64,000 nt of DNA from Malacoraja senta (taxonomy: Eukaryota), in NCBI GenBank assembly GCA_038087875.1, contig CM075991.1, forward strand, positions 9,674,001 to 9,738,000, written 5' to 3'. The notes under the pieces are model-generated. The model was given only the letters and a program-made list of their open reading frames with translations. It was not told the DNA's origin and did no database searches. Both the position numbers and the translations under genes were made by a program. Positions 5,750 to 44,709 of this stretch are shown here, in pieces. The first letter of the stretch is position 1. The number at the start of each line of letters is the position of its first letter.

Positions 5750-5798
5750 TCAGAAGGTGCTGGATGAGGAGGTTGTCAGTCTTTTCCCAATGTAGATC
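5750..5798 (-). CDS. BNIP3L: BNIP3L exon 6 coding part with stop
   Basis: tttag|G ATC TAC ATT GGG ... TTC TGA = IYIGKRLTTSSSSTF*. Confidence 0.96.
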
Positions 5799-8998: not shown

Positions 8999-9810
8999 CT
9001 AAACAGAAAACCCAGAAATGAACAGAAAGTCCATAAAATGCTAAGTTCAATGCTAAGTTTGCAAGTTCAAGATTTCCTGATATGTGCAAGCATTGGTGAT
9101 TATTCTGAACTTGTTGGGTCTTATGCAGGAAGATGCTGGTTGACGCATACCATTTCTCTGAAAACATTCAAGCCATTATATTTTAATGTCTGAAGAAGGG
9201 TCCCGACCCAAAACATTGCCTATCCATAACCTCCTGAGATGATGACTGACCCGCTGAGTTACTCCAGTACTTTGAGTTCTATGATAAATTGCATCATCTG
9301 CAGTTCCTTGTGCCTCTATACTTTAATAAAATACTGATAAGAAAATAGGCTTGACTAAACTTGAGAAATGCCTAGTAACAACATCTACCCGTCTCTTCCA
9401 GTGTGGAAATATGGAGTGAAAGAGAGAGAGTTCAATTAATTATTTAGACCTTAGATTTGTGTTTATTTGCGACTTCCAATCCATTCAGCAGCTTTTTTTT
9501 AAATAACCAAATTGCCTTATTTTATTTGGGCAAAGTTAAAGGTGACAACACTTTTTACCAAAATCCTGAAGGTCAATTAAAATCTCTTTAAAAGGAAACA
9601 AAACTGGTACAAGTGGTAGTGTTGCCTCTCAGTGCTACAAACCCAGGTTTGATTCTGACTTTGGGTGCTGCTTGTGTGTAGCTTGCACTGTCTCCCTGTG
9701 GCGATATGGGTTTCCCCTGGGTGCTTGGGTTTTCTTCCACATACCAAATACCTGTAGGTTGGTAGGTTTATTAAAATGCCCCGAGTGTGCAGGTGAGTGG
9801 TAGATTTTTA

Positions 9811-10508: not shown

Positions 10509-10838
10509 TTTAGTTTAATCTAGTTTAGAGATACAGCGTGGAAACTGGCCTTTCGACCCCCCGGGCCTGCGTCAACCAGCGATCCCTGTACACTAGCACT
10601 ATCCTACACACTAGGGAAAATTTACAATTTTTTCTGAAGCCAATTAACCTACAAACCTGTACGTCTTTGAAATGTGGGAGGAAACCATAACTCCCGGAGA
10701 AAACCCACGCGGTCACGGGGAGAAAGTACAAACCATCTTTGGTACAAACTCCGTAGAGACAGCACCCGTAGTCAGGACCGAACCTGGGGCTCTGGCACTA
10801 TAAGGCAGTAACTCTGCCATTGCGCCACCATGCTGTCC
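10509..10838 (-). mobile_element. HE1/V-SINE-like, near full length
   Basis: tRNA head, V-domain, and 3' tail GCCAGTTTCCACGCTGTATCTCTAAAC with CTAAA-type repeats. Confidence 0.85.
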
Positions 10839-11382
10839 CAGTTGAGGAGGATGTGTGGCGAATTTTCAAAATGAGATTAGTGTTGGGGCAGACTCAGTGA
10901 GCTGAAGGACCCATTTGCCCCTCTATGACAATCGCTCTGACTCCATGACTTGACAGTAACCTTTAAATATCAGCCTCTGGTATTAGATGATAAGCAGCTA
11001 CAGAGGGACACCGCACCCTCAGAGGAGACAGTGTCATCAGCAGGAGAATTAAACAACTGCAGAGTTTGAATTAATGTTCATTCTCTTCGATAAATTGGTA
11101 CACAAGATCATTCTTCGTTTTGCCATTGTGGCTGAACTGTAATCAGTTTCCTCCTACATCCCAAAGATGTGTAACTTACTCTCCCATATAGATGAGTGGA
11201 AGGAGTATTTGAGAGGAGAGAATGTGTTACGGGGAAATAAATTGGGGAATAGATCAGAGATGAATTCTCCAAGAGCTGCTTATGTTGTCAGAAATTGAGG
11301 AAGTTTTGCTGTTGTACAACAATTCACTTCAAATACATGAAAAGAAACATTGTTTCTTTGTATCAAAATCTCAACTGTCACA

Positions 11383-11667
11383 CTGTGGAAACAGGCCCTT
11401 CGACCCACTGAGTCCGTGACGACCAGCGATCACCGCACACTAACAATATCCTACACACAATAGGGACAATTTACAATTATACCAAGCCAATTAACCTACA
11501 AACCTCTACGTCTTTGGAATGTGGGAGGAAACCGGAGATCTCAGAGCAAACCCATGGTCACGGGGAGAACGTACAAGCTCCGTACAGACAGCACCCTTAT
11601 TCAGGATCAAATCCGGGTCTCTGGTGCTGTAAGGCTGCAACTCTACGTCTGCGCCACTGTGTCGCCC
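11383..11667 (-). mobile_element. HE1/V-SINE-like, near full length
   Basis: Same head, V-domain and tail as 10509-10838. Confidence 0.85.
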
Positions 11668-16940: not shown

Positions 16941-18254
16941 TGCTAGAGCAAAACATGAAATTGGGAGTATTGGCACAATGTCAGGATTTCTGTTTGATCA
17001 TTGCTCTACCTGAACTGCGTTAGTCCTTATGGTTCAAACAAGTTGATTTTTTCATAGATAAAATTTGAAATAGAGTAAAAAATGGAATTAAAGCAAAGAT
17101 TGGTTTTCACTTGAAGTAGACTTATCATTTAAAATACATCTAAAAATCAACTGTAACATTAATTTATTGAAAGAACCAATGCTGGCTCTTATTTACATTC
17201 ATTATGTCAATTAGGAATCTATACAAGTTTTTTTATACATTTGAATAAACAATGAAAATTTCAGCTAGCAGGCTTTATTTTAAATGACGCTCTCTCTCTT
17301 TGGAAATCTAAGAAGAATACAGCAGATATAATCAATTCTCAGGTCTATCAGAACTGAAGCTCAAGCTAGGAAATTCCATTAATCCGGTCCTCACTGACAT
17401 TCAACCGAGATCTGCATTTGTGGTGTGGATGAAAGCAAAATTTTAGGCCAACTTTCTAAATTGTTAAGGAAATTGGAGTGACTCCAAAACAGATGGCACA
17501 CAACAACATCACAACAAGTGATGGTAACAAGTGTCTCAAAACTAAAACTAATTGCGGAGACACATTATGTATCCAGGATTCCAATCCCGGCCAAGTGAAC
17601 AAATTTCTTATTTGGAAGTGTAGTGGTGTTTTAAAATGCAATTACATGTATAGATTAAGATACCATTGCTTGATAACCATTTTAACATTAACATCAGTTT
17701 GGAAATACAAGATGATATTTATACAAGTAGATTTTAAAGTAATTCAATTACAAAGTATTCATTGTATTTTACACATTAATAAAATATGTATCTACAACAG
17801 ATTTGAGAGGAATTGCATCTCATTACACAGAGGTGACTGGGTTTTGTTTAAATATAATGTATAATCTTATAAAACCTGAAAAACAAACTGGATCACACTA
17901 CCATCTGCTAGATTACTCTGAATTTAATGTGCTTATTTCTATGCTAAAGACTGCTGCTTCCATTCCCTGTGCATCTCCTCTTTCTGGTCAGTCGTTTTGC
18001 TTCACGTTAACTACACTGGTTATTAGCTGAAAAATTAACCTATTTCTGCCTTTTAGACGTAGACAGACTCAAAGCACAGACAGATTTGGAGGTTTTCCTA
18101 GTTTTCATCTTCCACATTTAATTCTGATACAGGTTCAACATTATGCTCTCTGTTGTCAACTTTTATATAATTTACTGTGTCAGGTTGGGAGACTTTCTAA
18201 AAATAGAATTAAAACATTAAAAAACGGCTAATAGTCACGTGTCAAAGTCACATT

Positions 18255-19598
18255 CAGGGCTCACCATAGCACAGAGTCTGCCTTGTTGAAGGTACACAAT
18301 GACCTACTGCTCACCGTTGACTCCAGCGACTGTGTAATTCTGCTCCTTCTTGACCTCAGAGCAGCATTTGATACTGTCGACCACACCATCCTAATGGACC
18401 GTCTCCGGTATGGGGTTGGTATTGATGGCACTGCCCTGAGCTGGTTCATCTCCTACCTCAAAGGTAGGAGTTTCTCAACTAACATAGGCAACTCTTTCTC
18501 CTCCCCAGCTAACCTCTGCTGTGGGGTTCCACAAGGTTCCATCCTTGGCCCCATTCTCTTCTCCCTGTATATGCTCCCCTTAGGCCAAGTCATTGAAAGG
18601 CACGGCATTTCCTTCCATTACTACGCAGACGATACACAACTCTATCTCCCCCTGAAGCCCAAAAACCAATCAAATCTGCTTAACCTTACCCACTGCCTCA
18701 AGGATATAAAGTGTTGGATGGCCCAGAACTTCCTCCAACTAAACGAGAGTAAGTCTGAGGTCATCCTTCTCGGCCCCTCGGACTCGATCAAAATGATAGC
18801 AGGCAGCCTTGGAAGCCTTACCCCACTACTTAAACCTCACGTCAAAAACCCTGGCGTGATATTTGACTCAGCACTGAAATTTGACAAACAAGTCAATGCC
18901 GTGGTAAAAGTTAGCTTCTTTCAGCTTCGGAAGATAGCTAAAATAAAACAATTCCTCCAGTTTGATGACCTCGAAAAGATCATCCACACATTCATCTCCT
19001 CCCGCCTAGATTACTGCAACTCCCTTTACACTGGCATCAGCCAATCTTCCCTGTCCCGCCTGCAACTGGTCCAAAACGCTGCAGCGAGACTCCTGACGGG
19101 CACCCGAAAAAGGGACCACATCACCCTGATCCTGGCCTCTCTCCACTGGCTCCCTGTGCGGTTCCGTATAAACTTCAAGATCCTCCTCCATGTCTACAAA
19201 GCCCTCAATGGGCTTGCCCCCACCTACATTAAAAGTCTTCTCACCCACCACTCCACCTCCAGGCCCCTCAGATCGGCCGACTTGGGGTTGCTGAATATCC
19301 CACGGTCTAGGCATAAGCTCTGGGGCGACCGCGCCTTTGCGGTTGCAGCCCCTAGACTGTGGAACAGCATCCCCTTTCCCATCAGAACTGCCCCCTCCAT
19401 CGACTCTTTTAAGTCAAGACTAAAAACTTATCTATACTCCCAAGCCTTTCCTGACGTCCTCTGAGTGAGGGCTACATGTATATATGTATGTAGTTTGTTT
19501 TGTTTATGGTATTCTTATAACAAATGTAAAGCACTTTGGCCAACGAGAGTTGTTTTTTAAATGTGCTATATAAATAAATGTGACTTGACTTGACTTGA
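18255..19598 (+). mobile_element. 5'-truncated L2-clade LINE in BNIP3L intron 1 (antisense to the gene)
   Basis: Open frame HHSTESALLKV...DLRAAFDTVDH...GVPQGSILGP...YADDTQ...SRLDYCN...LHWLP...LKTYLY, then a short 3'UTR, AATAAA and a (GACTT)n tail. Confidence 0.92.
18283..19464 (+). CDS. L2 reverse transcriptase, C-terminal 393 aa (partial; ORF-track start is TTG, not a true start)
   Basis: RT motifs YADD and GVPQGS plus an L2-type C-terminus. Confidence 0.8.
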   Translation: MLKVHNDLLLTVDSSDCVILLLLDLRAAFDTVDHTILMDRLRYGVGIDGTALSWFISYLKGRSFSTNIGNSFSSPANLCCGVPQGSILGPILFSLYMLPLGQVIERHGISFHYYADDTQLYLPLKPKNQSNLLNLTHCLKDIKCWMAQNFLQLNESKSEVILLGPSDSIKMIAGSLGSLTPLLKPHVKNPGVIFDSALKFDKQVNAVVKVSFFQLRKIAKIKQFLQFDDLEKIIHTFISSRLDYCNSLYTGISQSSLSRLQLVQNAAARLLTGTRKRDHITLILASLHWLPVRFRINFKILLHVYKALNGLAPTYIKSLLTHHSTSRPLRSADLGLLNIPRSRHKLWGDRAFAVAAPRLWNSIPFPIRTAPSIDSFKSRLKTYLYSQAFPDVL

Positions 19599-20050: not shown

Positions 20051-21759
20051 AGCACTGAATTCAATTATACTTATATCTTGGATGTTGTCACAAAGAACCC
20101 TTAAAAAAAGTTTGCATTTGTCACCTGGTTTAATGCAAACAAGCTCAAAACAAGTGAAAATGTTAAACACGGGTGAAAAATATATTAATGGAGTTCCCAA
20201 TTAAGAAAGAAACAGACATAAACTAATGTATTAAAAGTAAACTTCTGTTTCCAGAAAATTACTGGGTGGTTTTCCTCAATTCAGACCCAGTTTGGCAAAT
20301 TTACAAATATTTAAAAAAAAAAATTCAAGGATAAAAGCAAAGCTGTGTCAATCCTTTTTAAAAATTGATAAATGTTTTTCTTGTTTCGAAAACTTTTAAT
20401 TACTCAAAATGCAAATATTTCTCATTAAAGTTCAAAAATTATGACTGTTTCCCTCTATGTAACCTATTATAAAAGTTACATTTAACCAGCGTACAAATTT
20501 GGTGAACATTGACCCAAACATCATTACTTCCTTTTCCTTCCTTAAGCAGTTTTAGAATTCCTCAAGAATGCCACTCACTTTCATCCAAATGTTTTCTTCC
20601 CCCAAGTGTAATCACAGCTTGCACAGCAAGTAGGACTTTTTTTGTTTACTCCAAATAGCAAATAAATACTACACAACTCAGTCTGTGTGACTATGCCTTC
20701 AAATTATATTTTTATTTAAACTAAACTTATGAGATAAGAGCTTATTTACAGGAGATAGAATATTCTAAAAATAAAGAATACGTCATTCTATAGTTTAGCC
20801 AACACTTCACTTCTCCAGTCTGTGCTGTTAACTGATCACAGACAAGGTGTTTGGGCTAACTAGTTCTTTATTATGGGTCAAAAAAACTATTCTTATTTTT
20901 TTAGATAATACCAAACTTATCAGCTGAATAATGAATGTTTATTTGCCACCACCAGCATGGCTGATGGAAAATAAAAACAGGCAATAAAAGGGTTGTAATG
21001 AGGCAATAAACGTGTTGTAACTGCTCATGTGGACCAGACTCAATGGGCCAAATGGCCTAATTCTGCTCCTCTGTCGTATAGTAATTTTGTGCACATAGTA
21101 GACATGACAGCAGAGCATTCAGAAAGGAGGAATCATATCATCTGGAGCACAAAGAGAAGCTTTGATAGAAAAGAAAACATATATAAAGAGACAATTTGGC
21201 AGTTTAATAATATATTAAATGCAGAACTGGGCTATTTAACTGTGTAGGAAGAAACTGCAGATGCTGGTTTAAACCGGATAGACACAAAATGCTGGAATAA
21301 CTCAGCGGGTCAGGCGGCATCTCTGGAGAGAAAGAATGGGTGACTTTGGGTCGAGACCCTTCTTCAATCTGAAGAAGGGTCTCGATCTGAAACGTCACCC
21401 ATTCCTTCTCTCCAGAGATGTTGCCTGTCCCGCCCGCTGTGTTACTCCAGCATCTGTGTCTATGGACTACTTATCTTTTAGGTACCCATAAGCACAAGAA
21501 CAGGTCATAAAACTGTGCCATGCAGCCAAGGCACACTTCCTGCAATATGCTAGATTTAGTGGTCAGCATTTGAAAAGAAAGGGTAAAATAAGGGTGCGAA
21601 GTCACCAACACAGTTTTTCTCCCACTCTCCCGCAGCCTAAACAAAATATGGTGATCACTGGAGTCACGGATAAAGCCAAGGAATATGTGCACAACAAATT
21701 ATAATGAGATAAATTGCCAATGTGGCAGGGGAGGAGGGTACGGAAAAAAGGACAGGACA

Positions 21760-22705
21760 TAGAACAGTACAGGACAGGAACAGTCCCTTCAGCCCAAACT
21801 GGCTGTGTCAAACATGATGCCAAACTAATCTCTGCTGCCTGCATGTGTTCCATATCCCTCCTTTCTCTCCATAGCCATCTGCCTTTCTAAAAACTTATTA
21901 AATGCCACTTTTGTATCTGTCCACTGCTCCACCCCAGGCACCACTCTGTGTAAAACTCTTGCTCCGCACATCTCCTTTAAACATTGCCCCTCTCAGCTTA
22001 AAGCTATGTTCTCTCATTTTTGACATTTCCACCCTGAGAAAATGGTTCGGTCTACCATTATCCATGCATCTCATAAATTTAACAGGTCTCCCCTTGGCCT
22101 CCCATGCTCCACAGTAAACAATCCAAGTTTGTCCAACCTGTCCTTGTAGCTAATGCCCTATAATCCAGACAGCATTTGGTAAATAGACAGGGTCTCTGTG
22201 GGAGGGATCTCTGTCCCAGCCAGCGCCTGAGGCAAAGCTCCTAAGTCGTGCACTGAGGAGCTGACCTGGATGAGGGGGGAGGGGCAATTGCCACAGTGCT
22301 CCTGAGCTACGGCCACCATTTGAATGAGATAGAGGCAATTACCATAATGGTCACCATTTGGATTAGGAAGGGAACAATTGCCACTGTGCCATTGGGCTGT
22401 GACCACCATTTGGATGAGGAGGGGTCAATTACCACAGTGGCCGCCATTCTGATGAGGAAGGGGACAGTGGCCCAGGGCTGTGGCCACCATTTGGATGAGG
22501 AGGGCGAACTCTCCCTGGTGCTCCTGGGCTGGGGCCACCATTTGGATGAGGAGGGGGGAACAATTGCCACAGTGCCCCTGAGCTGTGGCCACCACTTGCC
22601 CACAGCTGTTACTAACGTGAGCTTGATAACATCTTTCCTGCAACATGGTGCCCAGAACTGAACACAATACTCTATTAGCCTCACCAACGTCTTGTGTAAC
22701 TGCAG
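21760..22705 (-). mobile_element. Decayed CR1-type LINE fragment interrupted by a minisatellite
   Basis: 3' tail at ~21760-21860 and a KTLVRLIEYCVQFWAP peptide at 22610-22705. Confidence 0.65.
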
Positions 22706-23020
22706 TGGTGCGGACACCATTTGGATGAGGGGAGGGGGGGGAGGGGCAATTGGCATTGTATCCCTGAGCTATGGCCACCATTTGGATGAGGAGAGAGTAG
22801 TTGCCAGTGGCCCATTTGGATGAGGTAGTACAGTTGGCACTGTACCCCCCCCCCTCCCCCCTCCCCCCTCCCCCCTGAGCTGTGGCCACCATCTGGATGA
22901 GGAGTGGGGGGGGCTATTGGCACTATATTCCCCTCCCCCTCCGCGAGATAACAACTTATGAGGTGTTTGCGCAGTAATCAACCAAAACCACCACCCACCC
23001 GAGCTGTGACCACCATTTGC
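22255..23020. repeat. GC-rich minisatellite, ~40-55-bp unit
   Basis: Recurring GGCCACCATTTGGATGAGGAGGGG...ATTGCCACAGTG, roughly a dozen units. Confidence 0.85.
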
Positions 23021-23039
23021 TCCACTGTTGTTGCTCGAG

Positions 23040-23850
23040 CAGGTAGTCCCCCCCCCCCACCACACACCCCAAGTCCCGCCCTCCGCCGCCGCCCATTGGT
23101 CGGTCGCGGCAAGCACCGCGGCATGACGTAAGATCGGCGGCGTGCGATTGGCCGGCGGCGGTGTCGATCGCCCGACGTCACTTCCTGTCCAACAGGGGCC
23201 CGCCCCTGTTGCTCTTGTTGTCGTGGAGCCGGGGTGATGGGGGGGGGGGGGGAGGTGGGAACGACGCGTTTCCAATGGGAGACGAGTCGGTGCCTGACTT
23301 GAGCCCGCCGCTGAGTTGGAGACATCGATGGAAGAAAGGTGCCATTCGGACCGGTCGCCTGCTGCAGGTCAGTTCTACAATCTCTCCCCCTGCCCCCTCA
23401 GAACGGCCTGTTACTACACTCAAGTGTTGTTGTCCCCCCTCCTGTAAAGGAGGGAACTGCAGATGCTGGTTATTATGGGCACAAACAAACCGCTGGGTTA
23501 ACTCAGCGCCTGTGGAGAGAGAGAGAGAGAGAGGGAGAGAAGGAATAGGTGTCGAGACCCTGCGTCCTCCTTCCACTCACCGTTCAGAGGCGTCTCCTCG
23601 ATGGCCGGTGGTGGTGGTGATGGTGCAGCCGCCATGGAGAGCGGGCGGCCGTTAACTCCCCGTCGGCGTTTGAAATGTCCCCCCCAACTGCCGCGACGCT
23701 CGAGCTGCTGTCGCCGGATCGGCGCGCATGCGCCGGGTGGCCGGGCCCCGTGGTGGTGGTGGGGGGTGTGTGGGGGGGGGGGGGGGAGCAGGATAGTGAG
23801 ACCGACGCGATTGCGTCATCACGTCAAGAGTTGGCGCCTGGACCCGCTGA
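23040..23850. promoter_or_regulatory. CpG island / BNIP3L promoter region
   Basis: Sharp rise in GC and CpG around exon 1; GCGCATGCGC (NRF1-type) at 23724-23733; TGACGTGATGACGCAA on minus at 23811-23826; GC boxes, CCAAT and GGAAGTGACGTC at 23070-23280. Confidence 0.85.
23581..23635 (-). CDS. BNIP3L: BNIP3L coding exon 1 (MAAAPSPPPPAIEETPLN-G)
   Basis: ctccATGG start inside a CpG island; ends AAC G|gtgagt in phase 1, joining exon 2 to give LNGSWVEL. Not in the ORF track. Confidence 0.85.
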
Positions 23851-24002
23851 GTTTTGAACATCGAAGAAAGGTGCACAAGTAGGCCATTCGGCCCTTCACC
23901 GCCATTCAATGTAGTCATCCAAAATCAGTTCCCCCCCCCCCCACACATATCCATTGATTCCTTTAGCCCCAAGAGCTAAATCTATTCAAGAATCTATACT
24001 AG

Positions 24003-24672
24003 ACTGATTCCTGTGATGTCAGGACTTTCATATGAAGAAAGACTGGATAGACTTGGCTTATACTCGCTAGAATTTAGGAGATTGAGAGGGGACCTTATAG
24101 AAACGTACAAAATTCTTATGGGGTTGGACAGGCTAGATGCAGGAAGATTGTTCCCGATGTTGGGGAAGTCCAGGACAAGGGGGTCACAGCTTAAGGATAA
24201 GGGGGAAATCCTTTAAGACCGAGATGAGGAAAAACTTTTTCACACAGAGAGTGGTGAATCTCTGGAATTCTCTGCCACAGAGGGTAGTTGAGGCCAGTTC
24301 ATTGGCTATATTTAAGAGGGAGTTAGATGTGGCCCTTGTGGCTAAAGGGATCAGGGGGTATGGAGAGAAGGCAGGTACGGGATACTGAGTTGGATGATCA
24401 GCCATGATCATATTGAATGGCGGTGCAGGCTCGAAGGGCCGAATGGCCTACTCCTGCACCTATTTTCTATGTATCTATGTATCTATGTAAGAAGGAACTG
24501 CCGATTTAAGAGAGAGTTAGATAGAGCTCTAGGGGCTAGTGGAGTCAAGGGATTAGGGAGAAGGCAGGCACGGGTTATTGATAGGGGACGATCAGCCATG
24601 ATCACAATGAATGGCGGTGCTGGCTCGAAGAGCCGAATGGCCTCCTCCTGCACCGATTTTCTATGTTTCTAA
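24003..24672 (+). mobile_element. HER1/CR1-type LINE 3' ends (two stacked)
   Basis: LSYEERLDRLGLYSLEFRRLRGDLIETYKI...FFTQRVVNLWNSLP is a CR1 C-terminus; tail GGCCGAATGGCCTACTCCTGCACC with (TATC/TATG)n; a second tail at 24505-24672. Confidence 0.9.
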
Positions 24673-24751
24673 GCTGGAAAATCGAAGGTAGACAAAAGTG
24701 CTGGAGAAACTCAGCGGGTGCAGCAGCATCTATGGAGCGAAGGAAATAGGC

Positions 24752-24779
24752 AACGTTTCGGGCCGAAACCCTTCTTCAG
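24752..24779 (-). ncRNA. Minimal hammerhead-ribozyme-like motif in a repeat
   Basis: Identical to the motif at 25209-25236, on the opposite strand. Confidence 0.55.
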
Positions 24780-25208
24780 ACTCCTCAGAGCTAAATCTAC
24801 CTCTCTCTTGGAGTTACTCCAGCATTTTTGTGTCAATGCAAGGTTCCTTGCAGTGGGTACATTCCCAGCTTTGCCTACAGCACTGCGAGCAATGCACGCA
24901 TTTGGGCACCTGATGCAATGAACGAAGCGAAGCAGCTAAAATTGCACCGTCCATTCCATGCACTACAGTATTTGAAAGCTTTTTAAAGACAATCTTCTCA
25001 TCATAAACTGTTATCTTCAGTTCAAATCAAATACAAGTTTGTTCCATTAATTCCACAGCAAAAGACAACCAACCCACGTCATATAGTCATAGAGTGTGGA
25101 AACGGGTCCTTCGGTCCAACTTGCCCACAGCGACCAACATGTCCCATCTGCACTCGTCCCACCTGCCTGCGTTTGGCCCATATCCGTCTAAATCTGACGG
25201 ATCTAAGT

Positions 25209-25236
25209 CTGAAGAAGGGTTTCGGCCCGAAACGTT
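25209..25236 (+). ncRNA. Minimal hammerhead-ribozyme-like motif in a repeat
   Basis: CTGAAGA-A-GGGT(TTCG)GCCC-GAAA-C-GTT: CUGANGA, stem II, GAAA, palindromic ACGT, NUH triplet. Confidence 0.55.
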
Positions 25237-26293
25237 GCCTATTTCCTTCGCTCCATAGATGCTGCTGCACCCGCTGAGTTTCTCCAGCATTTTTGTGTAC
25301 CTTAAATCTGACATATCCCTGCCTCAAGAACCTCCTCCAGCAGCTGGTTCCATACGCCCACCATCGTTTGTGGGGTTTTTTTTAAAGCCCTCAGTTTCCT
25401 ATTACATCTCCCCCCCCCCCCCCCCTTCACTTTAAACCCATGCCCTCTGGTTCACGGTTCCCCCACTGTGCGTCCTTTCATAAAAAAATAAAAAAAAGCA
25501 TGGGTGACTCGCTGATTTATTCTAGCAGTCTTTTTTTGTAAAGCACCATCAGCAGTTCCTCGAGTCTACTACAAGCAAACTCTATAGTGACAAGCATAGG
25601 AAGTTAAACGTGCAGTGTCATATGTAAAACAATCTATAACTTACCCAAAGTATGAGACTACTGTTTGATAGCACGACATAAATGATCGGGCAACGACATA
25701 ATATTGAAGCAAGCGTGCAAATGGAGCGTGGGGCAGCAGAACTCGCACCAGACGGAACACCGCCTCTTTAAATCCACAAAACTGGCCTGGGCGTTTGTAC
25801 AGAAAACAAGCTGCTTCGGAAGGATTTCGGCGGATCAGGGAGAATACTCTACCGCTGCGCCACCGTGCCTCTTGTGTTTAAGCATTATGTGCCCACTTCG
25901 CTTTTGTCCGCCAACATAATTTATGGATTCATTAAAACACTGAGATTACAAAGTCAGATTCAAGCAAGACATTCAAAATATTGCGAAATTAATTACCAAT
26001 ACAAATAGGAGGAATATTTCCATCCTTGCATTTCACTGTATTTCAAATATCTGTGGCCTTCTGCTTTAAAACGACATTTGTTAAATGATTATAATAGCGG
26101 AGTCAGGGGATTATGGGGAGAAGGCAGGAACTGATTGGGGATGATCAGCCATGATCACATTGAATGGCGGTGCTGGCTCGAAGGGCCGAATGGCCTACTC
26201 CTGCACCTATTGTCTATAATAAATCAGAATAGCAATGTCAAATGTGTAATGGGATGAATTATCAGCAGCCTAGACAAACATAAAGTGCAAACA

Positions 26294-26470
26294 AGCTGGA
26301 GAAACTCAGCGGGTGCAGCAGCATCTATGGAGCGAAGGAAATAGGTAACGTTTCGGCCCGAAACGTTACCTATTTCCTTCGCTCCATAGATGCTGCTGCT
26401 GCACCCGCTGAGTTTCTCCAGCATTTTTGTGTACCTTCGATTTTCCAGCATCTGCAGTTCCTTCTTTAAC
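26294..26470. mobile_element. Short fold-back retro-repeat (Penelope-like-derived), representative copy with 16-bp TSD
   Basis: ~62-bp near-perfect inverted arms; direct repeat ACATAAAGTGCAAACA at 26278-26293 and 26471-26486. Related copies near 885, 2310, 9188, 21245, 23445, 24672, 25205, 30755, 33063, 33447, 34815, 42052, 43376, 45810, 46465, 51095, 52080 and 63465. Confidence 0.8.
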
Positions 26471-29400
26471 ACATAAAGTGCAAACACATATATAATGATC
26501 GCTTTAAAATATTCCCGTAAGTGATGGAACAGGTTTCAAATAGGACTCAACACTTAAGCAGAAACTCGTGACGTCTGCACTCAGCCGCTGCCAGAAGCCT
26601 TGAGAGCCAGAAAGAGATTTATGAGTTTGTGTTAGCAGTGTTTAACAACGCGGTTTCAGTGGTGTGTTTTTTAATGGAACTCGTGCAATTTTTTTTCTTC
26701 CTCCTAAACATTTCCAGAGGTTGATATTTTCTGTACTAATCCTGGGCTGGATGTATAAAGCACAAGCCTGACTGTTCGAATCTCATCATGGGGATTAGCT
26801 CATGATATTTCCATTGAATCTCATTGCAAGAATTCCATTGTCCTATCTGAGACGCATGACAATAAACTCTCTTGAATCGCGCCACTGCATGAGTGTTCCT
26901 TCATTTACATGCACTATCAACTTCCCTGGGCGGGGCAAAGAAAGCGGACACAGCACCTACCATCAGAAGGCAGCGATTGCGTGGTGCGTTATATTGGAGC
27001 TCCCTGTGCACTTAATCAGAAATTCTTAATACATGGAAGAGTTTTATTAATACGCAGTATATTGATCCTCCATTACACAGTAAAAAAAAACGACAACCGT
27101 TTAGTTGTTTCGCACAGTGATGTCCAATAACAACCTGAATGGAAGCCTGTCTTGCAGCAGCCTGGGGCGTACCTGGATCGGGGATTTTATAAACGGCCCC
27201 AAAATATGGCGACTGTGCATTTGTGGTTGTGTAAAAGAATATCACTGTGCATACATGACAATAAAGAACCATTGAACCGTTTGAAAGTTTTTTATTTCAC
27301 TGCCTTGGGTGTTCAATTAATCACCCTAAACATTAAAGTCCTTTACATTATCAGCACACCGTGGCTGCAGTGTGCCATCTCCAAAGCCAGAGGGACCACA
27401 ACCCCATCATCATCCCACAACTCCACCACCAAGATCAATGAGGTTAATGGGACACAAGAATGCCAACACACATGGGTTCCCCCTGCACATCATGCCAACG
27501 GAAATATTTTGCCATTGTATACATTGATGTATTGTCTTCTAACCTCCAAATTCTTCTGATGAATCTCCAGTGCACTTCTTCCTGAACGAAGTTAACTTTC
27601 CTGGGATTTAGAGGGCAGAATTGATTGAATTTAACCATAGAATCTCTACTCAGCACTTTATTAGATCTACCGTTTTGCGAGCCTTTTTAACCCCTGTGGA
27701 TAAAGGTTAACATTCCATGGGTTTTCAAATCCGTTCCGATTGACCACTAGCCTGAGATTTCTGTACTTGGGCCTGTCCTTGGCTGCTTAACACTATTTGT
27801 GGTTCCCATCCTAAAGGTACTGTACAAGAATGAGCCTGCATCCTGGACCGAGATCAGCCTTGATTAAATGGCGAAATAGACGATGGGCCAAGTGGCCTAA
27901 TTATGTGAATTATGAACGTGAACTTATCTCAGATGGATCTTTGCTAACCAAATTCCACGTGCATGAATTTTACTTTTGTCCAAATCTATCAACCTTACTT
28001 TGCATTGCTGTGCACCATCCTACTTAATGGTGAAAGGAGCTGGGTCTACAGTCGAGGGGACACCACTGAGTAAATTGTATCTTCGGTGAAGATTTAAGAT
28101 GAGGAGAGTGTAACGACTTTGTAGATCAGGTTAAGTGTTTCCTCAAAGTACCCATACTCCAACAGAGTAACAATTCCACACAGCCTCGGGCCACACATTA
28201 CCTGCTTTTCCACCTTGCTTTAATGACTGAAGGGTTTAGACTGCACTGTAAGCAATCCCTTACTCGCTCATCTTCAACTAGGTCTCTTGGTAAGTACCCG
28301 AGGCCCCATCATATTGATGTACATTCCTCACACTTCAGTAAAAAACAAGATAATCTGGTAGGAGAAAAGATCGCCCATTGAAGGGTCCAAACCAAGACAA
28401 CCAGACCAACTCCCAACGGATTATTCACTCTTTCCTTTAAGGACAGCCTGACAATGATTTAAAGTGTAAATTAAAACATCTTATCACATAAAATGTGCTA
28501 TTGTAATATTCCAGTATATTACTGGCTCTTCAGTTACTGACATTAATAATATGAAGCGCCTTTTTCATATGTGATGCGTTATTTCATGATGATGGTTCAC
28601 AAGATACTGTAAAGGTTAAAGTTCAAATCCAAAGCTATGTACAATAACTTGTCACAAGGCTGTTTCCAGAACCCGTGATCAATCCAAGAGGCAAACGTTA
28701 GGATTTCTTAATGTATTTTGTTAAGCAGGAATTGCATGGGACATACCAGGAAACAGCTGGTAATTTATGGTGACAGTGCAGTCAGACGTGTAGCTTGAGT
28801 AGCATTCATGCTCTTGACCATTTCCTGTGAATATAGCTTACCTGTGCCAATTTTTAGAAGTAGCTTTCAAATTACTTTCAACATTGACATTGAAACATTG
28901 ATATCATCTGTCATCTTGCCAAAGAACCATGGGGGAAAACATCGCCAAAATAAAGTATGCAGGCATAGAAAAATAAGAACAAATTAGGGAAATTAACAAT
29001 GGTGAAAAGATTTTGGAAGCCTCTGCACCTCCCGGATTTAGATTCTAATTTAAAAGGATACATTTTCAGAAAGCCCGTTTGTTTACTTGTGGCAGCGAAC
29101 TAATGCTAGCAGACCGCAGTTAACTACGGATTCCATTCTTGGGAACTGCCAATAAACCGATTTTCAATGTTGATTTTAGGATTATATAATTAAACGTGGA
29201 AATATATACTGTATTCAGTTGCTAATGAACCCCATAAAACATCAGTTTATCTTGAAAGTTCAAGGTTTTTTATTTTTAGCCCTGAACGGATTTTCTTTCA
29301 GCACGTGAAGATGTTCTGCTACTGGTGGTCTTTCATGCGTTCATAAGTCATTGGAGTAGAATTAGGCAATTCGGCCCATCGAGTCTACACTGCTATTCAA

Positions 29401-30500: not shown

Positions 30501-31329
30501 TGCCTATTTTTATACTCATTGCCCTGACCAATAGACATGCTTTACATATATAATATAAAGCCTTCTCTGCTCTCACTATAATCCCTGTCCATCTAGGTGT
30601 ATGTACATCCACTCCATCTTTTTTTCAGGATGTCCAATGAGCCCAAAGTGGGATCTGCACTATAGGGCAGGAGGTACATTAAGGCCTGTGTGAATGGGTT
30701 ACATGGGAGCACAAACAGTCAATTAGCTCCAACAAACAATGAGACAAGCACTTTAAGAAGGAACTGCAGATGCTGGAAAAATCGAAGGTAGACAAAAATG
30801 CTGGAGAAACTCAGCGGGTGCAGCAAGCATCTATGGAGCGAAGGAAATCGGCAAAGTTTCGAGCCGAAACCCTTCTTCAGCGAATGTTTTAATGTTGAGA
30901 AAAGAATATTGGCCGGGTGTGTATTCCCAGTGGTCAGGGATTCTGCATCAACAGAATGAATTAATTGCTCCAGTATCATGAACCACTAAAAGTGATAAAT
31001 CACTTCTCACAGCTGTGTGTGGACCTTGTGCTTCACCAGAGTTGGCAACCTTCAGATGAAGCAAGCGGAATTCAAAATAAACTATAATTCTCATATTCCC
31101 AACACTGTATTAAAACTAATATAGAATTACTTCACATTGCCAAGTAATGCAAAGGGCTTTTTGATACTTCCAAAGATTTTATTCCTACTCTGGGACGTTC
31201 AGTTCCTCCGGCTCTTCCTCCTTCAGGTGTAGTCAGAGCAGTTATCACTTTAGTGAGTGATAACGAGTCTGCTACACCAGGCATTTACACGTTTCTACAG
31301 TTTAGCACAGATCAAATCTCAATGCAGAC

Positions 31330-32110: not shown

Positions 32111-35100
32111 AGACAAAGGATAATTGTATAACGTGATACACTAACGCAGAGTAGAATATCGTATTTGCTGTTTTGGCATTACTAAGGAAAGTAAACTTCA
32201 TTAGGCATTAAAGCCAACCCAAGCTGGGTGACACACACTGGTTGCTGTTCCCAAGTCGGGCTCCCCACATAATACGTCAACATTGCAGCACCTTTGGTTT
32301 GAGCCTTAGGATACTCACCAGCAAGAATCCCATGAGACAACTAACCACATGGAACTGTTGATCTGCCTTCACCAACAACCCCTTTGCAAGATGCATTGAG
32401 TGGAAATATTAGGACATTAGAAATTCTTAAACGACAATACAACGTTGACATTCATAGTGCATACATACCTCAAAAATTTAGTTAATTGAATCCTACTAAA
32501 TGCAACTAAAATTAAGGCCACATTTGTCACCATTTTTAATCCACCACTATCCCAATTTTCCTGTCTCCAAAAATGCAGGATTTAAAGAATAATTTTACAT
32601 CAAATCATTCATTCAAGAACCAAAGAGAGCGACTGTAAGAATAACTAATAAATGGAGTAACTTGTTAACAAAGGTTTATTCTCCTGCTCGGAACCAACTA
32701 CCTCACTGCTTTGCAGTGCATTAAAGTGCATTTCATGTATAGTTTTCCATTTCATACTTTATTCTACAGAATGGTTATTGGGATTTGTCTACAAAGTACT
32801 TGAATGTTACTGGGGATACATCAATTCAGATTCTCCAATAAAGCTAATATGCTTGGATCTATTTCCAATTGCAGTGTTAACCACAAAGGCTATATTTCCT
32901 CAATTCACTTTGAAACTGATTGAAGAGTATGAAGATGAAATGTATCTTATGAACCCGTTGATAGCTCTGAGGAACTATTTGCAAAGTGCAGAAGTTGGCA
33001 AACAGGGTGAAAACGGTTGAACACATTTGCCTCCAGGAAAGAACCTGCACATAACCACCTGCATAGGAAAGAACTGAAGATGCGGGTTTAAATCGAAGGT
33101 AGACACAAAATGCTGAATAACTCAGCAGGTCAGGCAGCATCTCTGGAGAGAAGTTTCGGGTCAAGACCCTTCTTCAGACTGTACTTGTAACCACATGTAC
33201 TTGGATAAGAAGCCATTTGGATATACGAGTTCAGAAATCATCTACATGGACGGGACCAAATCCCCCCCTCAAAATAAAAAAAATAACAAGTTTGTCAGTC
33301 TCTAACTTGCACAATCCAATTGTAGCACTCTTCCTAAAAGCCCATTGCCTCTCTGCTGGTCCTAAAATGGGCCCCTTCTTCACAGGATAACAAAAGTCTG
33401 CAAACTCATCAAGAGGCACAATCTTCACAACTGCTTATAATGTTATTCGAAGGAACTGCAGATGCTGGTTTATACCAAAGATAGACACAAAATGGAGCCA
33501 CTCAGCAGGTCAGGCAGCAAAGAAAATGGACAGGTTATCGCCACCATTTTCACTAGTGATGCTGCCTGACCCGCCTGCTGACTTGAAATGTCGCCTATGC
33601 CAGAGATGCTTCCCCACCCAGAGTTACTTTAGCTTTTTGTGTCCATCTCCAGAAACTGCTAAGTCTAAAACATTAACATTTCTCACAGAATCTGCAGAGT
33701 GAAAATTAAGTTCAGAACACTAATCCTGCACGTCAGTTCTGAATACATAATTTGCAAAACCGCAAAGAGTTTATCTACAAAGCTCAATCTGGGATATAAT
33801 TTTACTTCTCAATAAAGGAAAACCAATCATATTCTTCCATTCGAACAGTTGAGGTTGTTTTTGGCATCAATTAATCCCTAATTTTAGAACAGTCAAATTT
33901 AAAACAACTCATTGCACTTTAGTCCTTCCATGTTTCAAGTATACAGTTGCCTTACTCAACTACACAGGAACGAATATTTCAACTGGCATTACATCAAATT
34001 AGCTCCGGATGTTCACGACCAAGAACTAAGTTGGGAAGTCAGAACTGGCATCACACCCCCATTCCCACAGAAAATCTCCAAACGTCACCTTCCACTGCCA
34101 GCCATAATCACTGCAGCGCAGCGAACGATGAGAATCAGCACATGAGCAGCAGAGCATCTGAACACTCAGCCAGAGGTCAAGCAGTCTATTAAAAAAATAA
34201 CAATCTTTTCCTACAGTTCAGTTGCCAAGTGCAAAAATCCAAGAATCCAACACAAACAATGCACTGAGTTAACCAGCCAGGTTAGGTGGCAGTAAAAATT
34301 GTATTACTTCAATCTTCACCAATTTACATGGAGTCCTGGTGCTGATCACACCTACAACAGGTTAGTACTGGACAAAATATTACAAGAAAAATGGAGATAG
34401 GCTGGTCAAATCATCTCTCATTCAAACAAATTAGGTCACAGCAGCTGTTGTGATTTTGTTTTACGAGACAAAACATACGTTTTAGAAGAATTTGGACAAC
34501 TTGAGGCACATTATCATGAAACATGAGCCACTAAAGAAAACAAAGTTCAAGCCAAGTCACAGCAGTTTTTACAATATCCTTTGCGATGCGTCTGAAACCA
34601 CTGGACTGGAAGTTGTTAAGTAGCCATGCAGCTTTTGGCATTAAGTGAACAGGGACATTGCAATCATAATTTTCCAATTAATGCAGCACTTGGGATATAA
34701 TTATACTTCTCAGTAAATTGGGGGGAATTATATTCTTCCATTCTGCTCACTAGATCAAGAACATTGTTTCTGCACTGGCATCAAACCCAGTGAACTCTGA
34801 GTGATACCCACTGATGGCTGGAGGAACTCAACGGGTCAGGCAGCTGGGATGGAAGGACTACGTTTCATGACTGGTAACTTCTTCCCGATCCGGAACGTCA
34901 CCTGTCCATTCCCTCCCCAGATGCTGCCCGACTCGCTGAGTTTCTCCAAAACATTATTTTGTTCAAGATTCCAACATCAGCAGTTTCTTGCGCCTCCAAT
35001 TCACTGACTGAGAACTAGTCAAACTCGGCTCCAATTTAACTTACCCAAGTTAAATCAAAATTCTGAAAATCCAGGCAAGTGCTGTTGGGAGATTTAACAC

Positions 35101-36190: not shown

Positions 36191-36470
36191 TTAATTCACT
36201 TTGTCCTGGAATATATACAGGTTGTTGGTTGTGGCTACGGCAATGATATTTTCCTTAGGGTGCCAGGCTGTGTGCAGGATCTTCTTGTTGAAGTCCAGAC
36301 TATCAACACTAATCTCGTCCTTCTTCCTCTTGCCCCCTGAACACACCCTGCGTGGTTTCAGGATAGCCCGTGGTTTGCTGTTCTCTCTCGAAGCCTCTAG
36401 CGTAATGTCCCGTTTTGTGTTTCTATCGAACATTCTGAAGAAATTGTTGTACGACCCAGTCATGACAACA
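36191..36470 (-). CDS. PPP2R2A: PPP2R2A exon 10 coding part with stop
   Basis: tttcag|TGTTGTC ...; [29 protein letters not shown]...[11 protein letters not shown]. Confidence 0.97.
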
Positions 36471-38142
36471 CTGAAAGTGGTAAAACATTCAACCATTAGT
36501 AAGTATACATAAGTTCATAGTTCATAAGTTCTAGGAGCAGAATTAAGCCAGTCGGCCATCAAGTCTTCTCTGCCATTCATCATTGCTGACCTATCTTTCC
36601 CTCCCAACCCCATTCTTCTGCCTTCGCCCCATAACCACTTACTAATCAAGACTGTCAATCCCCGCCTTAAAAATATCAATTGAAATGAATTCCACCGATT
36701 CACCATCCTCTGACTAAAGAAATTCATACAGGTATTAGTGAGTCATGCAGGGTTTTGCTGCAATATAAAATTCCAGCTTGGCACATGCACGCAAGATTCT
36801 TAACACTTCACTGAGAAATATGAGCCTTGCAGCTTCACTTTTATTAAATCTCATCGTGGGTTTGAAAACCTGCTTGTTTATTTTGTACTACTCTTTCAAA
36901 GATCAGGAATGGAGCGGCTGGGCTTGTACACTCTGGAATTTAGAAGGATGAGAGGGGATCTTATTGAAACATATAAGATTGTTAAAGGTTTGGACACGCT
37001 AGATGCAGCTCCCTACACCAGAGCTCAAATGCACTAAACAGTGCTGCACACGCTGGCCATTCAGCGACCTTATCGCATTTACAATTCACTGGAGACATTT
37101 TCACAGTATGTAAATGCAAACCTTTATCTTCCAATTTCTTTAATAATTTCCCATTTCCTCCTCTGAGACCATTCCTACAGGAAGAGTCATAATCCTTTGG
37201 AAGAGCTTGGAAGAGACCAGCCTTTGAAAGAGTCATAATCATGCTCATTGCATTTCTTTCTTAATGAATGACAATTTGAGATCAATATTTGCCCAACGCG
37301 GGCAGGTGGGACTAGTGTAGCTGGGACATGTTGGTCAGTGTGGGCAAGTTGGGCTGAAGGGCCTGTTTCCACGCTGTATCACTCTATGCATGATCTTGAA
37401 ATCAAACAAAAACAAAACCTGCACATTAGGCAAGTGACAAGGCATTATGATTCAAAAGGCATATACTTGGAGTTCTCATCCAAAATTTATGAAACCCGTT
37501 TGTATCATAGATTGACCTCGATACCAAGGTTAAGAGAACCCATCTTCCAATACTCAGAGTAAGCATCACCTCCACTACACCTTCCCCCACTTGCTCCCTC
37601 GAGAACCCAATTCCCCATAATTGTTAACTTCCACCATATCCAGCTTTCAGCCACCAAACAAAACAACATTTCTCCACCCACTCACCAGGGAAAGTGAGCA
37701 TGACCATCACAGCAGATGTATCATGGGAGCAGAGCCTTGGTAACTAGTACAAACCACGGATCAATTAAAACGGCCCTCCTATCCACCTGGAAGAGTCTTG
37801 TGCCCGTGCTTCATGCAGGAGTCAGACTAGCTGGTAAACTGCAGACCATGTAGAGCTTGGGTATGGCTTTACCAAGTCTGGAAAGGGGCACCAACTTTAT
37901 TCTTTCATTTCATCACCAGAAATCTCATCTCGAGTCAAAGGTGGCGCTAGCTAAACGTCATCATATTTCAAACAAATTTACAAGTCATGTAATCTGAACT
38001 TAATTGTCAATCTTTGGATCATCGTATCTGAAGCAGAATTCACACAGAAATCACCGGTCCCATGATACGTCATACAGAACCTAGATACCATTAGCAAGAA
38101 CAGAACAATTGAAGATCTCATTGAAGAAGAATCAGCTTTTAC

Positions 38143-39984: not shown

Positions 39985-40184
39985 CTGTTGGAGGGAAAAC
40001 AAATGTTGGGAAGGTCCAGAAAGTTGACTTGCTCCATTCTTATACTTTTTCCATTTGATAGCACCTAAATATTTATCGCCAGCATTGTACCATATTCAAC
40101 ACCTCCTATTCAGCAGAAATATATTCAAATCATACCAGTCAGCATCTGCATTGAAAGGTACACTGCAAAAACAAAACAAATGCA

Positions 40185-40468
40185 CGCTGGCACAGCAGGA
40201 GAATTGCCACCCTACAGCGCCAGAAACCTGGGTTCAATCCTGACTGCATGTGCTGTCTCTACGGAGTTTGCACGTTCCCTGTGACTGCGTGGGTTTTCTC
40301 CAGGTGCTCCGGTTTCCTCCCACACTCCAAAGACGTGCAGGTTTGTAGGCTAATTGGCTTGTGTAAATTGTCCCTAGCGTGTAGGATAGTGCTAATGTAC
40401 GGGGTGATCACTGGTCTGTATGGACTTGGTGGGCCGAGGAGCCTGTTTCCGTGCTGTAAAGTCTAAAG
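40185..40468 (+). mobile_element. HE1/V-SINE-like, near full length (PPP2R2A intron 7)
   Basis: GGTTCAATCC B-box, GCTCCGGTTTCCTCCCACACTCCAAAGAC, GCCTGTTTCC tail. Confidence 0.85.
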
Positions 40469-41622: not shown

Positions 41623-43110
41623 CTGAGGCAGGCCATCAAGGATAATACAAGGCTTACCAGCCACACAAAATGACAACCTGGCCAAAGGGTGGAAAAAGTC
41701 ATATTCAGCTTATGCATGCAACTGATCCTATAGAGTAGCCAATTTCTATAAAATTATAACTAAGAAAATAAACCTTATTAAAGCAAGATATAAATGAATG
41801 ATTTCTGCAATATTCAACTCTGGATCAACATGAAACAGGAAAATAATTAGTCCCAAGATGATCACCCATCTCTTAATAAGTTTTCCATTACTTCACACAA
41901 TCCAATTTCCATAGTTATAGATAGATCTTATATTTTTATCTTTATAAAGCTAAAGGTGTTTCTGCTAGCTTGTTGCAACCTGTTTCCTTCAAAGTTTGGT
42001 CAAATCAATTCCAAGAACAAATAACTTTGGTGCCTATAAAATCAAAACTGTGTAGGAAAGAACTGCAGATGCTGGTTTAAATCGAAGGTAGACACAAAAA
42101 TCTGGAGTAACTCAGCGGGACAGGCAGCGTCTCTGGAGAGAAGGAATGGGTGACGTTTCGGGTCGAGACCCTTCTTCAGACAAGTTGAGTTACTCCAGCT
42201 TTTTGTGTCTAAAATCAAAACTGTAACTGCCCAGGTTTCTGATTGTGTAAATCCCAAGTCCTTGCTAAACCCAAGTCACAAGTCAACTTGTGCCAACATT
42301 GCCTTTTTTAGTCTTCAGAACCGTACCCAAGTAAAAACTATCTTCGCTTCAGGATTACAATAGCCTGTAACACCAGCACAAAAATTATCTATTGTCCATT
42401 TTACCAAATTGCCCAATGTTAGTTTTACTCTGCCCAAGAAGGTTATCGACCTAAAAAAGTAACCATTTTTCTCACAGCAGATTCTGTCTAATTTGCTGAG
42501 CATTTCCAGTATTCTGTTTTATTTACAATTACTTTACTTTTCTTTTACAAGAAAAAGTTAAGAGCTTTTTGTAGCTTTCTCAGACATAGTATACTGTGAA
42601 ATAGAGTCCAGGCAAGAATCCAAGAGCAGGAGCCAAACTCTTTAGTGCAATAATGGTACATGTCAGCAGCTAATGAAATTTTAATACTCATTTTTTTGAC
42701 GAGAATGGGAGAAGTCAAAGATAAAATGTGCTTGCTATTAGATGAATTGCATATCCAATAACACCCCTGAAGGTTTTAACGCCAGTTATTTTGAATTTCG
42801 GGTTGCAGGAGACCAGTTGAGTGATCACATTTAATGCAGGAATTTCAGCATTGGCCAAAGATTTGTTCTTGAAAGATCAGCAGAGCCATTAACCTGCCCT
42901 GACAGTCATGCATACTGGATAGACTGGCTGCGATTCAAACCAAAATACTCACCATCTGCCTTAGGATACAGACTGCAAGGTGTTAAACAATACCGACATA
43001 ACAATGCATGAAAAAAATCCTTTGTACTTTCAAGTGAGATTAGGAACATTGCTGCCAAATAAAACATTTTGCCCCCCCCAAAAAATGATCCGCCACATTG
43101 ACAAGGATAC
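41623..43110 (-). other. U12-type (minor spliceosome) GT-AG intron, PPP2R2A intron 6
   Basis: 5' site GTATCCTT; branch-like TCCTTGAT at 41635-41642 close to the 3' AG; no long polypyrimidine tract. Confidence 0.9.
42152..42179 (-). ncRNA. Minimal hammerhead-ribozyme-like motif in a repeat (sense in PPP2R2A intron 6)
   Basis: CTGAAGA-A-GGGTC-TC-GACCC-GAAA-C-GTC; host copy 42052-42209 has a 15-bp TSD TAAAATCAAAACTGT. Confidence 0.55.
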
Positions 43111-43288: not shown

Positions 43289-44709
43289 CTGAGAATGAGA
43301 AAAAACAAGGTGTTAAAAGAATTTAAACAATGAAGAAACCCATCTAGAGAAAGGCACATCATTTTACAGTACAGCTCTGAAGGGTTTTTGACATGAAACT
43401 TTTACATTTTCTCTTTCTACAGAGAGTTTTTCCAGCATTTTCTGTTTTTATATAACTTTTCAGTAAATGTTATTGAAATAAATTAATTTCATGAGGGTGC
43501 AAGGTACACTGTGGCACAAGAGGAAGTCATCCGAGTGCTTATTTTTCAAAGCTAATGCCAGCTATACATGCACAAAAAAGCCTTCAGATGTCAAGGCCCA
43601 GTAGCTGTGGGACAAATTCTCTCATCTCTCCTCCCTTAAGATGTTCTCTGAAACACCTCCAACCACAAATTCTGTCTTCTTGCACAATCAAGCAGAAATC
43701 TATTGCATAAAAACAGGAGTCGAACAAATTCAAGTACTTCCTATTGGAAATGATCAACGTCTGTGTAAATCATTTCCTTTCAGTTTTCCAGTGATATCGC
43801 ACATTGATAGCATCTTGTTTTGCTCTTTTGACTTGGAATCACACCACTTGCACATTTTATCGGATCCATTAATAAATTTATAGACCTCTGTTGGCTATCT
43901 CCATAGCTCTTTTCAAAAGTAGTTGATTGCTGGGAACAGCATATGACCCACATCAGCAAAAGAATAATATGAAGGAGCCAGAGCTTGCAAACAAGATTAA
44001 AAACTATGATGCAGGAACTGTGTAGGTGGGAGTGTATTGCCTACTTGTATCTTCACTGGAAGATAAGTCTAGGTAGAGTACTGGAAATCCCCACTCATCA
44101 GGATCACATTTATGAAGATACTTGTACAACGGCTCATTGCAGCAGTTCATTATTTCCAATATTAATAAGGGAGGGACAATGCCAGTCTTGCCAACAATAC
44201 CCCCATCCAACGAATTAATGAGAAAATCAAGCTTCAGCCTTCTCCTTTCACAATAGACCTGGCCTGTTCAACATTTCTTGATCTGTAGAGCCTAGCACTG
44301 CAAGTTTCGAACCTGCAAACGTATCTGGAATGCTCTCCTTTTATATGGCATCCAGAACTATGCAGAGTAGCAGAAGTACCTCACATGGCCTGGCATGGTT
44401 TTGTTTGAAAACACTCCACAGGAGGTCTGAGACTTTTTGCTACAATGTTGATGCCACTAAAGCATCTTTTGGATTTCAGGCCCTCAGAGTGTCACAGGTT
44501 GCCCAAATTGGGATACTGGGCATCAATATTAACAACACAGGGTATCTTCCACAATTGGTGCCTTGAAGCCACACCAAAACTGTCCCCCAGAACTGTCCTG
44601 GAATTTTCCTTTAACGATTTACCCAGATTTTACAACCAGAGTCAAAAACAATGAAACATCCAATATATGCTGGTGTATTCTTTGAATCAATTTGCACTCT
44701 AGATCTCAC

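Follow-up and report, generated by a model that had tools for sequence, protein, structure and literature searches.

Within a stretch of 64,000 nucleotides of the Malacoraja senta genome (assembly GCA_038087875.1, contig CM075991.1, positions 9,674,001 to 9,738,000 of the forward strand; hereafter the window, in which position 1 is the first letter), a short repeat carrying a minimal hammerhead ribozyme motif of the type known from Penelope-like elements (PLEs) occurs at about 20 loci. These loci comprise 27 repeat units, here referred to as arms, and add up to approximately 2.7 kb, i.e., 4.3% of the window. They were retained from a profile search followed by manual curation. The profile was made from 11 copies of the window and resulted in 30 matches at E<=0.1, of which the weak matches at 25501-25560, 33545-33574, and 43376-43445 were discarded and the match at 24755-24841 was manually shortened to an arm at 24811-24836. 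On five Markov-shuffled windows, none or one weak match per window was obtained with the same profile. A previous reading of the letters alone (in the following, the sequence-only reading) had counted about 19 copies. This order is borne out by the number of loci, but the arms are more numerous and include head-to-head pairs that had been overlooked, as had the two fixed 3' ends described below.

The basic unit has a length of 95 or 133 nt, lacks coding capacity, and starts with the fixed head (A)GTCTGAAG. At least two subfamilies, A and B, are present in the window and a third is visible among the loose ends of the contigs described below. A loose hammerhead pattern matched eight times, compared to 1.25 expected matches; eight or more matches were reached in 0 of 100 shuffles, and six of the eight are copies of this family. 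The regular expression for the core was passed by five of the 13 aligned head-bearing arms, and as read from the alignment, the palindromic CG together with an unaltered stem II is also kept in three of the 13. The cores at 24752-24779 (minus strand), 25209-25236 (plus strand), and 42152-42179 (minus strand), which the sequence-only reading had described as intact, are indeed letter-perfect minimal type I hammerhead motifs.

The intact subfamily B head at 24752-24781 (minus strand), identified by pattern and alignment, is composed of GT followed by CUGAAGA-A, a 4-bp stem II, and GAAA-CG-UU. It is part of a complex insertion at 24490-24836, in which a long minus-strand arm (24673-24782) is accompanied by a short inverted plus-strand arm (approximately 24811-24836). 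Based on a by-eye comparison with 26436-26472, the tail of this long arm resumes at approximately 24490-24507 and is interrupted by a short interspersed nuclear element (SINE)-like repeat. The core at 25209-25236 is situated in a single short arm (25206-25302) of the plus-strand locus 25189-25312, with a 10-bp duplication (25189/25303). The locus 42037-42224 consists of a long minus-strand arm of subfamily A (42049-42181), which contains the intact core 42152-42179, and a short inverted arm (42186-42211), with a 15-bp duplication (42037/42210). Head-to-head pairs were furthermore observed at 26278-26486 (short minus, long plus), where the joint is located inside stem II, the hammerhead head is gone, and a 16-bp duplication (26278/26471) occurs; at 21240-21463 (long minus, short plus), where each arm begins at the hammerhead; in decayed form at 33447-33651 (long minus, short plus) and 34803-34990 (short minus, long plus); and at 63450-63617 (short minus, long plus), where the arms are joined at the stem III palindrome and an 11-bp duplication with one mismatch is found.

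A partial head-to-tail tandem, composed of a 5'-truncated long arm, a full long arm, and an extra tail piece, is located at 51090-51304 (plus strand). It is the only one among the 20 loci, and two cores in tandem occur at none of them. Long arms are situated at 883-999 (plus, decayed core), 9177-9327 (plus, 11-bp duplication with one mismatch), 23448-23566 (minus, strongly decayed), 30750-30881 (minus, subfamily B with a broken stem III palindrome), 33052-33197 (minus, deletion past GAAA and a weak 10-bp duplication with one mismatch), and 52064-52159 (minus, 5'-truncated and without hammerhead, 12-bp duplication 52064/52148). Short arms are found at 42435-42517 (plus, decayed), 46457-46560 (minus, decayed core), and 45798-45930 (minus), the latter with a decayed inverted remnant past its head that was left unscored. 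In case of the long minus-strand arm at 2308-2443, the core is decayed and a 5-bp stem I draws on letters of the flank. The TAGGT/ACCTA stem noted there earlier (2406-2443) does exist, although the three outermost base pairs lie outside the family boundary and the GAAA is mutated; as it consists partly of flank letters, it was rejected as proof of a longer stem I. The direct repeats at 25189/25303, 26278/26471, 42037/42210, and 52064/52148, in contrast, are all real.

The repeat that interrupts the arm at 24490-24782 belongs to a second abundant SINE-like family (D4/D20) with short tandem-repeat ends, which was observed at 24254-24672, 26109-26219, and 45342-45561. Since one of its copies splits the tail of this arm, D4/D20 is the younger of the two repeats; it resembles the shark HE1/HER1 repeats.

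The 3' ends of the arms are distributed bimodally. With respect to the profile model, 11 of 26 arms end at positions 85-106 and 15 at positions 125-134, while none ends at 107-124 (five ends were adjusted by hand, and the arm split by the SINE-like repeat was excluded). The two end points, which distinguish short from long arms, are thereby approximately 35-40 nt apart. Arm starts are located at model position 8 or before in 16 of 27 arms, and the remaining 11 are scattered over positions 13-70. Due to the fact that variable shortening is confined to the head side, the hammerhead side represents the 5' end and the polarity follows the hammerhead strand. Directly in front of the core, G and T are each found in 10 of 13 heads and an A before them in seven; no common letters were detected further upstream in the 13 heads compared. 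All of the seven scorable head-to-head pairs combine one long with one short arm (P approximately 0.006 given the arm frequencies; the remnant at 45798 was excluded from the score). The position of the junction varies, with examples at the head (21367), within stem II (26350), in the palindrome of stem III (63496), and still further down (42186). This long-plus-short pairing and the two fixed 3' ends are the signature of the PLE "tail". Duplications scoring 9 or more were observed at six of 20 loci (23 intervals tested), compared to 10 of 300 random intervals (3%). They are AT-rich, with 24 of 85 bases being G or C (28% GC versus 40% in the window, P=0.015). Together, the duplications of PLE type, the tail, and the inverted partners support an origin of the copies by retro-insertion.

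Both subfamilies comprise the extra base after A9, the G10.1-C11.1 pair, a palindromic 15.2/16.2, and NUH. Judged from these letters, a match of the motif to the consensus published for minimal PLE hammerheads (PMC4209133) is supported, and the earlier identification of a hammerhead core appears to hold. Stem II is formed by 4 bp with a tetraloop (98% of alignment cells paired in 13 copies). Stem I had been described as 2-3 bp long in most copies; it is very short indeed, and for the family it amounts to 2 bp only (G-C plus U-A or U-G, 79% of alignment cells paired), and in monomers it is predicted to pair with a probability close to 0. For the three intact copies, folding predicts a longer hairpin, in which the core is base-paired to the segment following the cut site, together with a stem II probability near 0. 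The double-hammerhead dimer is predicted 20-23 kcal/mol above the best dimer fold (ViennaRNA, in which tertiary contacts are ignored), and folding of the whole unit is no better than that of mononucleotide shuffles (z of 0.05, -1.3, and 0.6). The Rfam scan of the window returned no hammerhead family at E<=5. Rfam microRNA matches at 26305-26413 were rejected, since they only reflect the palindrome.

According to these folding models, hardly any ribozyme activity is predicted for the present copies. PLE hammerheads were reported to cleave weakly as dimers (PMC4209133) and, in another study, only with the element's own protein (PMC11167929), and eight of nine Xenopus dimers tested did not cleave (bioRxiv 10.64898/2026.07.22.740005). 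Agreement with the subfamily majority amounts to 85-93% in non-CpG core segments and to 88% elsewhere, with the strongest decay at CpG positions (16 of 75 versus 90 of 837 changed). Core decay within copies resembles that of the rest of the unit, as neutral decay predicts. A core more conserved than its flanks, which the sequence-only reading had made a touchstone of the ribozyme, is thus not observed, although for dead copies this comparison is ill-posed.

Public Logan contigs of four runs (211,644, 223,030, 17,925, and 17,343 contigs) were aligned to positions 41900-42330. Contig joints, loose ends, and core variants reported in the following are those among the matches listed, and the counts for runs X1 and X2 are lower bounds. 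Contigs of run X1 show no differences from the flanks of the locus 42037-42224, and this run may derive from the source of the window itself. The same insertion is carried by run X2, which derives from a relative (organism B), and an empty site at 42037 was not seen in the contigs. Loose ends at the tail end (42049) were found in at least 894, 959, 126, and 156 contigs and at the head (42181) in at least 2363, 2930, 290, and 409 contigs of the four runs. Due to their low agreement (0.31-0.42), most copies are concluded to sit in unrelated flanks. The loose-end consensus at 42102 indicates a short end near 42090, in addition to the long one. Beyond the head, the plurality letters in runs X17 and X2 form a C-rich stretch ending in TCA, which is a hint that longer copies exist. 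Joints within contigs include head-to-head inversions at 42179/42181, head-to-tail tandems after the long end (133 nt; at least 59, 35, 9, and 2 contigs in the four runs), and further head-to-tail tandem joints of 91 nt (after the short end) and 37 nt. In both DNA-sized runs, each with more than 200,000 contigs, tandem duplications of approximately 37 nt were found that cover the hammerhead core only (42181 to 42145 or 42152) and would represent natural dimer substrates. That runs X11 and X17 contain the repeat was rejected as a sign of a discrete RNA, since these data are contigs with guessed RNA labels. Likewise, the summed contig depth (up to 6e7 and 1e8, compared to 33-145 in the flanks) was rejected as a measure of copy number.

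Similar to the minimal hammerheads in the pseudo-long terminal repeats (pLTRs) of metazoan PLEs (Cervera and De la Pena 2014, PMC4209133), the motif comprises CUGANGA plus an extra base, G10.1-C11.1, GAAA-C-G-U-H, and a palindromic stem III. As described there, stem I is very short and the copies are mostly dispersed singles, which were regarded as truncated PLEs, with some opposite-strand pairs. In contrast to the published motifs, stem II has only 4 bp, and the 2-bp stem I contains one weak pair, whereas the 2-bp cases of that study (Fig. S3) are G-C/G-C. No cartilaginous fish is named in the supplement text searched; supplement 1, outside this search, may list other species. The abundance observed here looks far above the 4,000-9,000 reported for coelacanth and Xenopus in the same paper.

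Insertions of endonuclease-positive (EN+) PLEs have been described with a neighbouring 5'-truncated copy in inverted orientation and a tail of 30-40 bp that is confined to one end (Craig 2021, PMC8557442) and with an inverted pLTR, a 31-bp tail, and duplications of 8-10 bp (Arkhipova 2013, PMC3846280). The repeats share with these units the head-to-head 5'-truncated partner, a tail of 30-40 bp, duplications of about 10 bp, and partial tandems. Unlike in these units, an open reading frame (ORF) was not observed in any copy, and truncation is non-random, with 16 of 27 arms stopping just before the ribozyme. The protein of the anole element Poseidon (Anolis carolinensis; Frangieh 2024, PMC11167929) is reported to nick both strands of AT-rich targets and to use, mainly on uncut RNA, two internal priming sites bounding the tail. 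The position of the hammerhead approximately 100-150 nt upstream of two priming sites, the AT-rich targets, and an uncut template are in good agreement with the present repeats. The Poseidon ORF begins at stem II, whereas here no frame starting from the unit is open in both subfamilies.

Considering these data, we presume with moderate confidence that the repeats are insertions of the terminal module of a PLE, i.e., of a hammerhead-bearing pLTR with an optional tail, which were likely made by Penelope proteins and probably copied from uncut RNA. The leader of an autonomous PLE RNA is, with comparable confidence, the probable template. By analogy to the anole Poseidon (PMC11167929), the GIY-YIG endonuclease of the element would nick the two strands of the target at a distance of 10-16 bp. 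Reverse transcription could be primed by either nick, at one or the other of two internal positions of the RNA approximately 95 and 133 nt from the head, and the complementary DNA (cDNA) would extend back through the uncut ribozyme as far as the 5' end of the RNA. Single arms would then result from one primed strand and long-plus-short inverted pairs from two primed strands meeting at their ends. Most templates were presumably uncut, given that the cut site is located 30 nt downstream of the heads. The ribozyme itself would cleave only as a dimer or assisted by protein, and would decay neutrally after insertion. Because the copies encode nothing, a protein made elsewhere must have moved them, which supports the earlier proposal of mobilisation in trans. 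With less certainty, the fixed head may correspond to the transcription start of the PLE RNA (initiator-like TCA+1GTCT). In that case, these insertions (stubs) would be copies of the first priming module of this RNA and would have no family master of their own. The letters of the head fit the initiator consensus. Internal promoters with initiator-like elements have been described for PLE pLTRs (PMC3846280).

Several observations weigh against this interpretation. None of the 118 flanking ORFs searched (out of 249 candidates) matched a Pfam family, and the repeat translated in two of six frames gave four protein matches (three lacking a Pfam family, the fourth being a gene model for phospholipase C that contains the repeat), none of which is a reverse transcriptase (RT) or endonuclease. 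In these weak searches, no copy was thus tied to an RT or GIY-YIG ORF. Exact-pattern scans of prokaryotic, viral, and metagenome contigs gave no match, which is uninformative for an animal repeat. Past the tail, no shared continuation was found among the contig loose ends, and therefore no more than a small minority of copies would extend into an ORF. A convincing duplication is absent at 14 of 20 loci, many of which are old or interrupted. The earlier statement that both variants keep stem II is correct with respect to pairing, but changes are one-sided only and no compensatory change occurs in 13 copies. The four subfamily differences in the 32-nt hammerhead block all fall outside its 15 fixed positions (P=0.066), and the four core variants among the contig matches listed are all CpG transitions, non-CpG variants being absent there (P=0.10); both results are only suggestive. 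Finally, the initiator was recognised post hoc on a consensus of low agreement (0.34-0.42), and the head letters fit a 3' splice acceptor as well; in D. virilis, an intron is reported to end at helix I (PMC4209133). A shared upstream exon, as a splice acceptor would suggest, was not found in the copies.

Instead of stemming from an autonomous element, the repeats might form a dedicated non-autonomous family, in which short masters derived from a PLE terminus give rise to an RNA of approximately 133 nt or more that is moved in trans by PLE protein. This would agree with the shortness and common fixed head of nearly all copies, with the subfamilies (at least two in the window and a third among the loose ends), with the absence, in most copies, of a common sequence extending beyond either end, and with the 133-nt head-to-tail tandems in the contigs; moreover, non-autonomous pLTR-forming PLE derivatives have been described (PMC8557442). 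However, a plurality of loose ends runs upstream into the shared C-rich stretch, as expected for a part of a longer unit, a tRNA-type promoter was not found, and the anatomy is equally explained, with no need for a master of its own, by internal priming on the RNA of an autonomous element. We therefore consider a dedicated family unlikely. An ordinary RNA polymerase III SINE or a small DNA transposon with coincidental hammerhead-like letters would account for the absence of a hammerhead in Rfam and of covariation, and some insertions look palindromic. On the opposite strand of subfamily A, A-box-like and B-box-like words are located 53 nt apart, but such a pair arises in 65 of 300 shuffles and is present in none of three subfamily B copies, so that these boxes were rejected as chance-level. 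Neither tRNA genes (ARAGORN) nor a poly(A) or simple-repeat end were detected, the inverted arms vary by locus, unlike terminal inverted repeats, which are fixed, an asymmetric tail is specific to PLEs, and the motif agrees with every feature of the published minimal PLE consensus (PMC4209133). A SINE or DNA transposon of this kind is considered very improbable. A scan for bacterial promoters was empty and is irrelevant here.

The sequence-only reading had also applied the label "retrozyme", i.e., a non-LTR retrozyme, whose tandem units self-cleave and circularise, with reverse transcription proceeding from RNA circles. Retrozymes (Cervera and De la Pena 2020, PMC7229834; Li 2026 preprint) are likewise short, non-coding, and likely PLE-derived, with a type I hammerhead. 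They have been reported in one cartilaginous fish, where they were traced to pLTRs (bioRxiv 10.64898/2026.07.22.740005), and head-to-tail joints of 133, 91, and 37 nt do occur in the contigs. Nevertheless, the label does not fit, and this origin is considered extremely unlikely. Retrozymes are characterised by head-to-tail arrays, canonical active ribozymes, and circular RNAs, whereas the copies observed here have a minimal core and are mainly dispersed, as singles or as head-to-head pairs, a single locus contains a partial tandem, and tandems make up a minority of the contig joints. Copies do not start at the cut site, and their ends are fixed instead of permuted. With a 2-bp stem I and without a stem III loop, the ribozyme is not of the canonical retrozyme type (PMC7229834), and the unfavourable energy predicted for the double-hammerhead fold points in the same direction.

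Apart from the hammerhead repeats, a near-intact LINE (long interspersed nuclear element) of the L1 type is located at 53086-59096 (minus strand), with an open stretch of 1271 aa containing endonuclease and RT domains and an upstream ORF of 331 aa. Another LINE fragment at 18235-19464 (plus strand) is open over 409 aa from the RT to the C-terminus (RVT_1). A third dispersed SINE-like family (D16-D18) was observed at 231-395, 9646-9694, 10586-10833, 11380-11661, 40183-40371, and 60390-60534. As expected for vertebrate DNA, a gene for a PP2A B55 regulatory subunit is represented by its final coding exon at 36191-36514 (minus strand, E 3e-56), and an irregular tandem array with a GC-rich unit of 40-60 nt (D12, D15) at 22260-22910 lies beside a GC-rich island (22001-24000). 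In the phospholipase C model mentioned above, the low-quality skate RefSeq entry XP_055521710.1, residues 817-842 correspond to a translated piece of the repeat, which is due to exonisation or, more likely, to a gene-prediction artefact.

In summary, the repeat is a real and abundant PLE-type hammerhead repeat of a known kind, since PLE hammerheads, tails, and inverted ends have already been described, and it is notable mainly for its abundance and its fixed head. With approximately 4% of the window, it seems to rank among the major repeats of the lineage. A description of the family was not found in the papers searched; Repbase/Dfam, outside the search, may well contain it, and so may the supplement of bioRxiv 10.64898/2026.07.22.740005. 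The fixed head and the strict long-plus-short pairing provide a large natural data set on the priming and joining of PLE cDNA, the mechanism of which has been in question since in vitro studies began in 2024. It is tempting to speculate, albeit tentatively, that the PLE RNA starts at an initiator two to three bases before the core, leaving almost no stem I, and that cartilaginous-fish genomes contain on the order of 10^5-10^6 fossil integration intermediates produced by dual priming, with the hammerhead possibly serving as a protein-gated switch at the 5' end (decapping or leader removal) and not as a ribozyme for genome release. If this holds true, the stubs would allow the dual-priming model to be tested in vivo on the scale of a whole genome.

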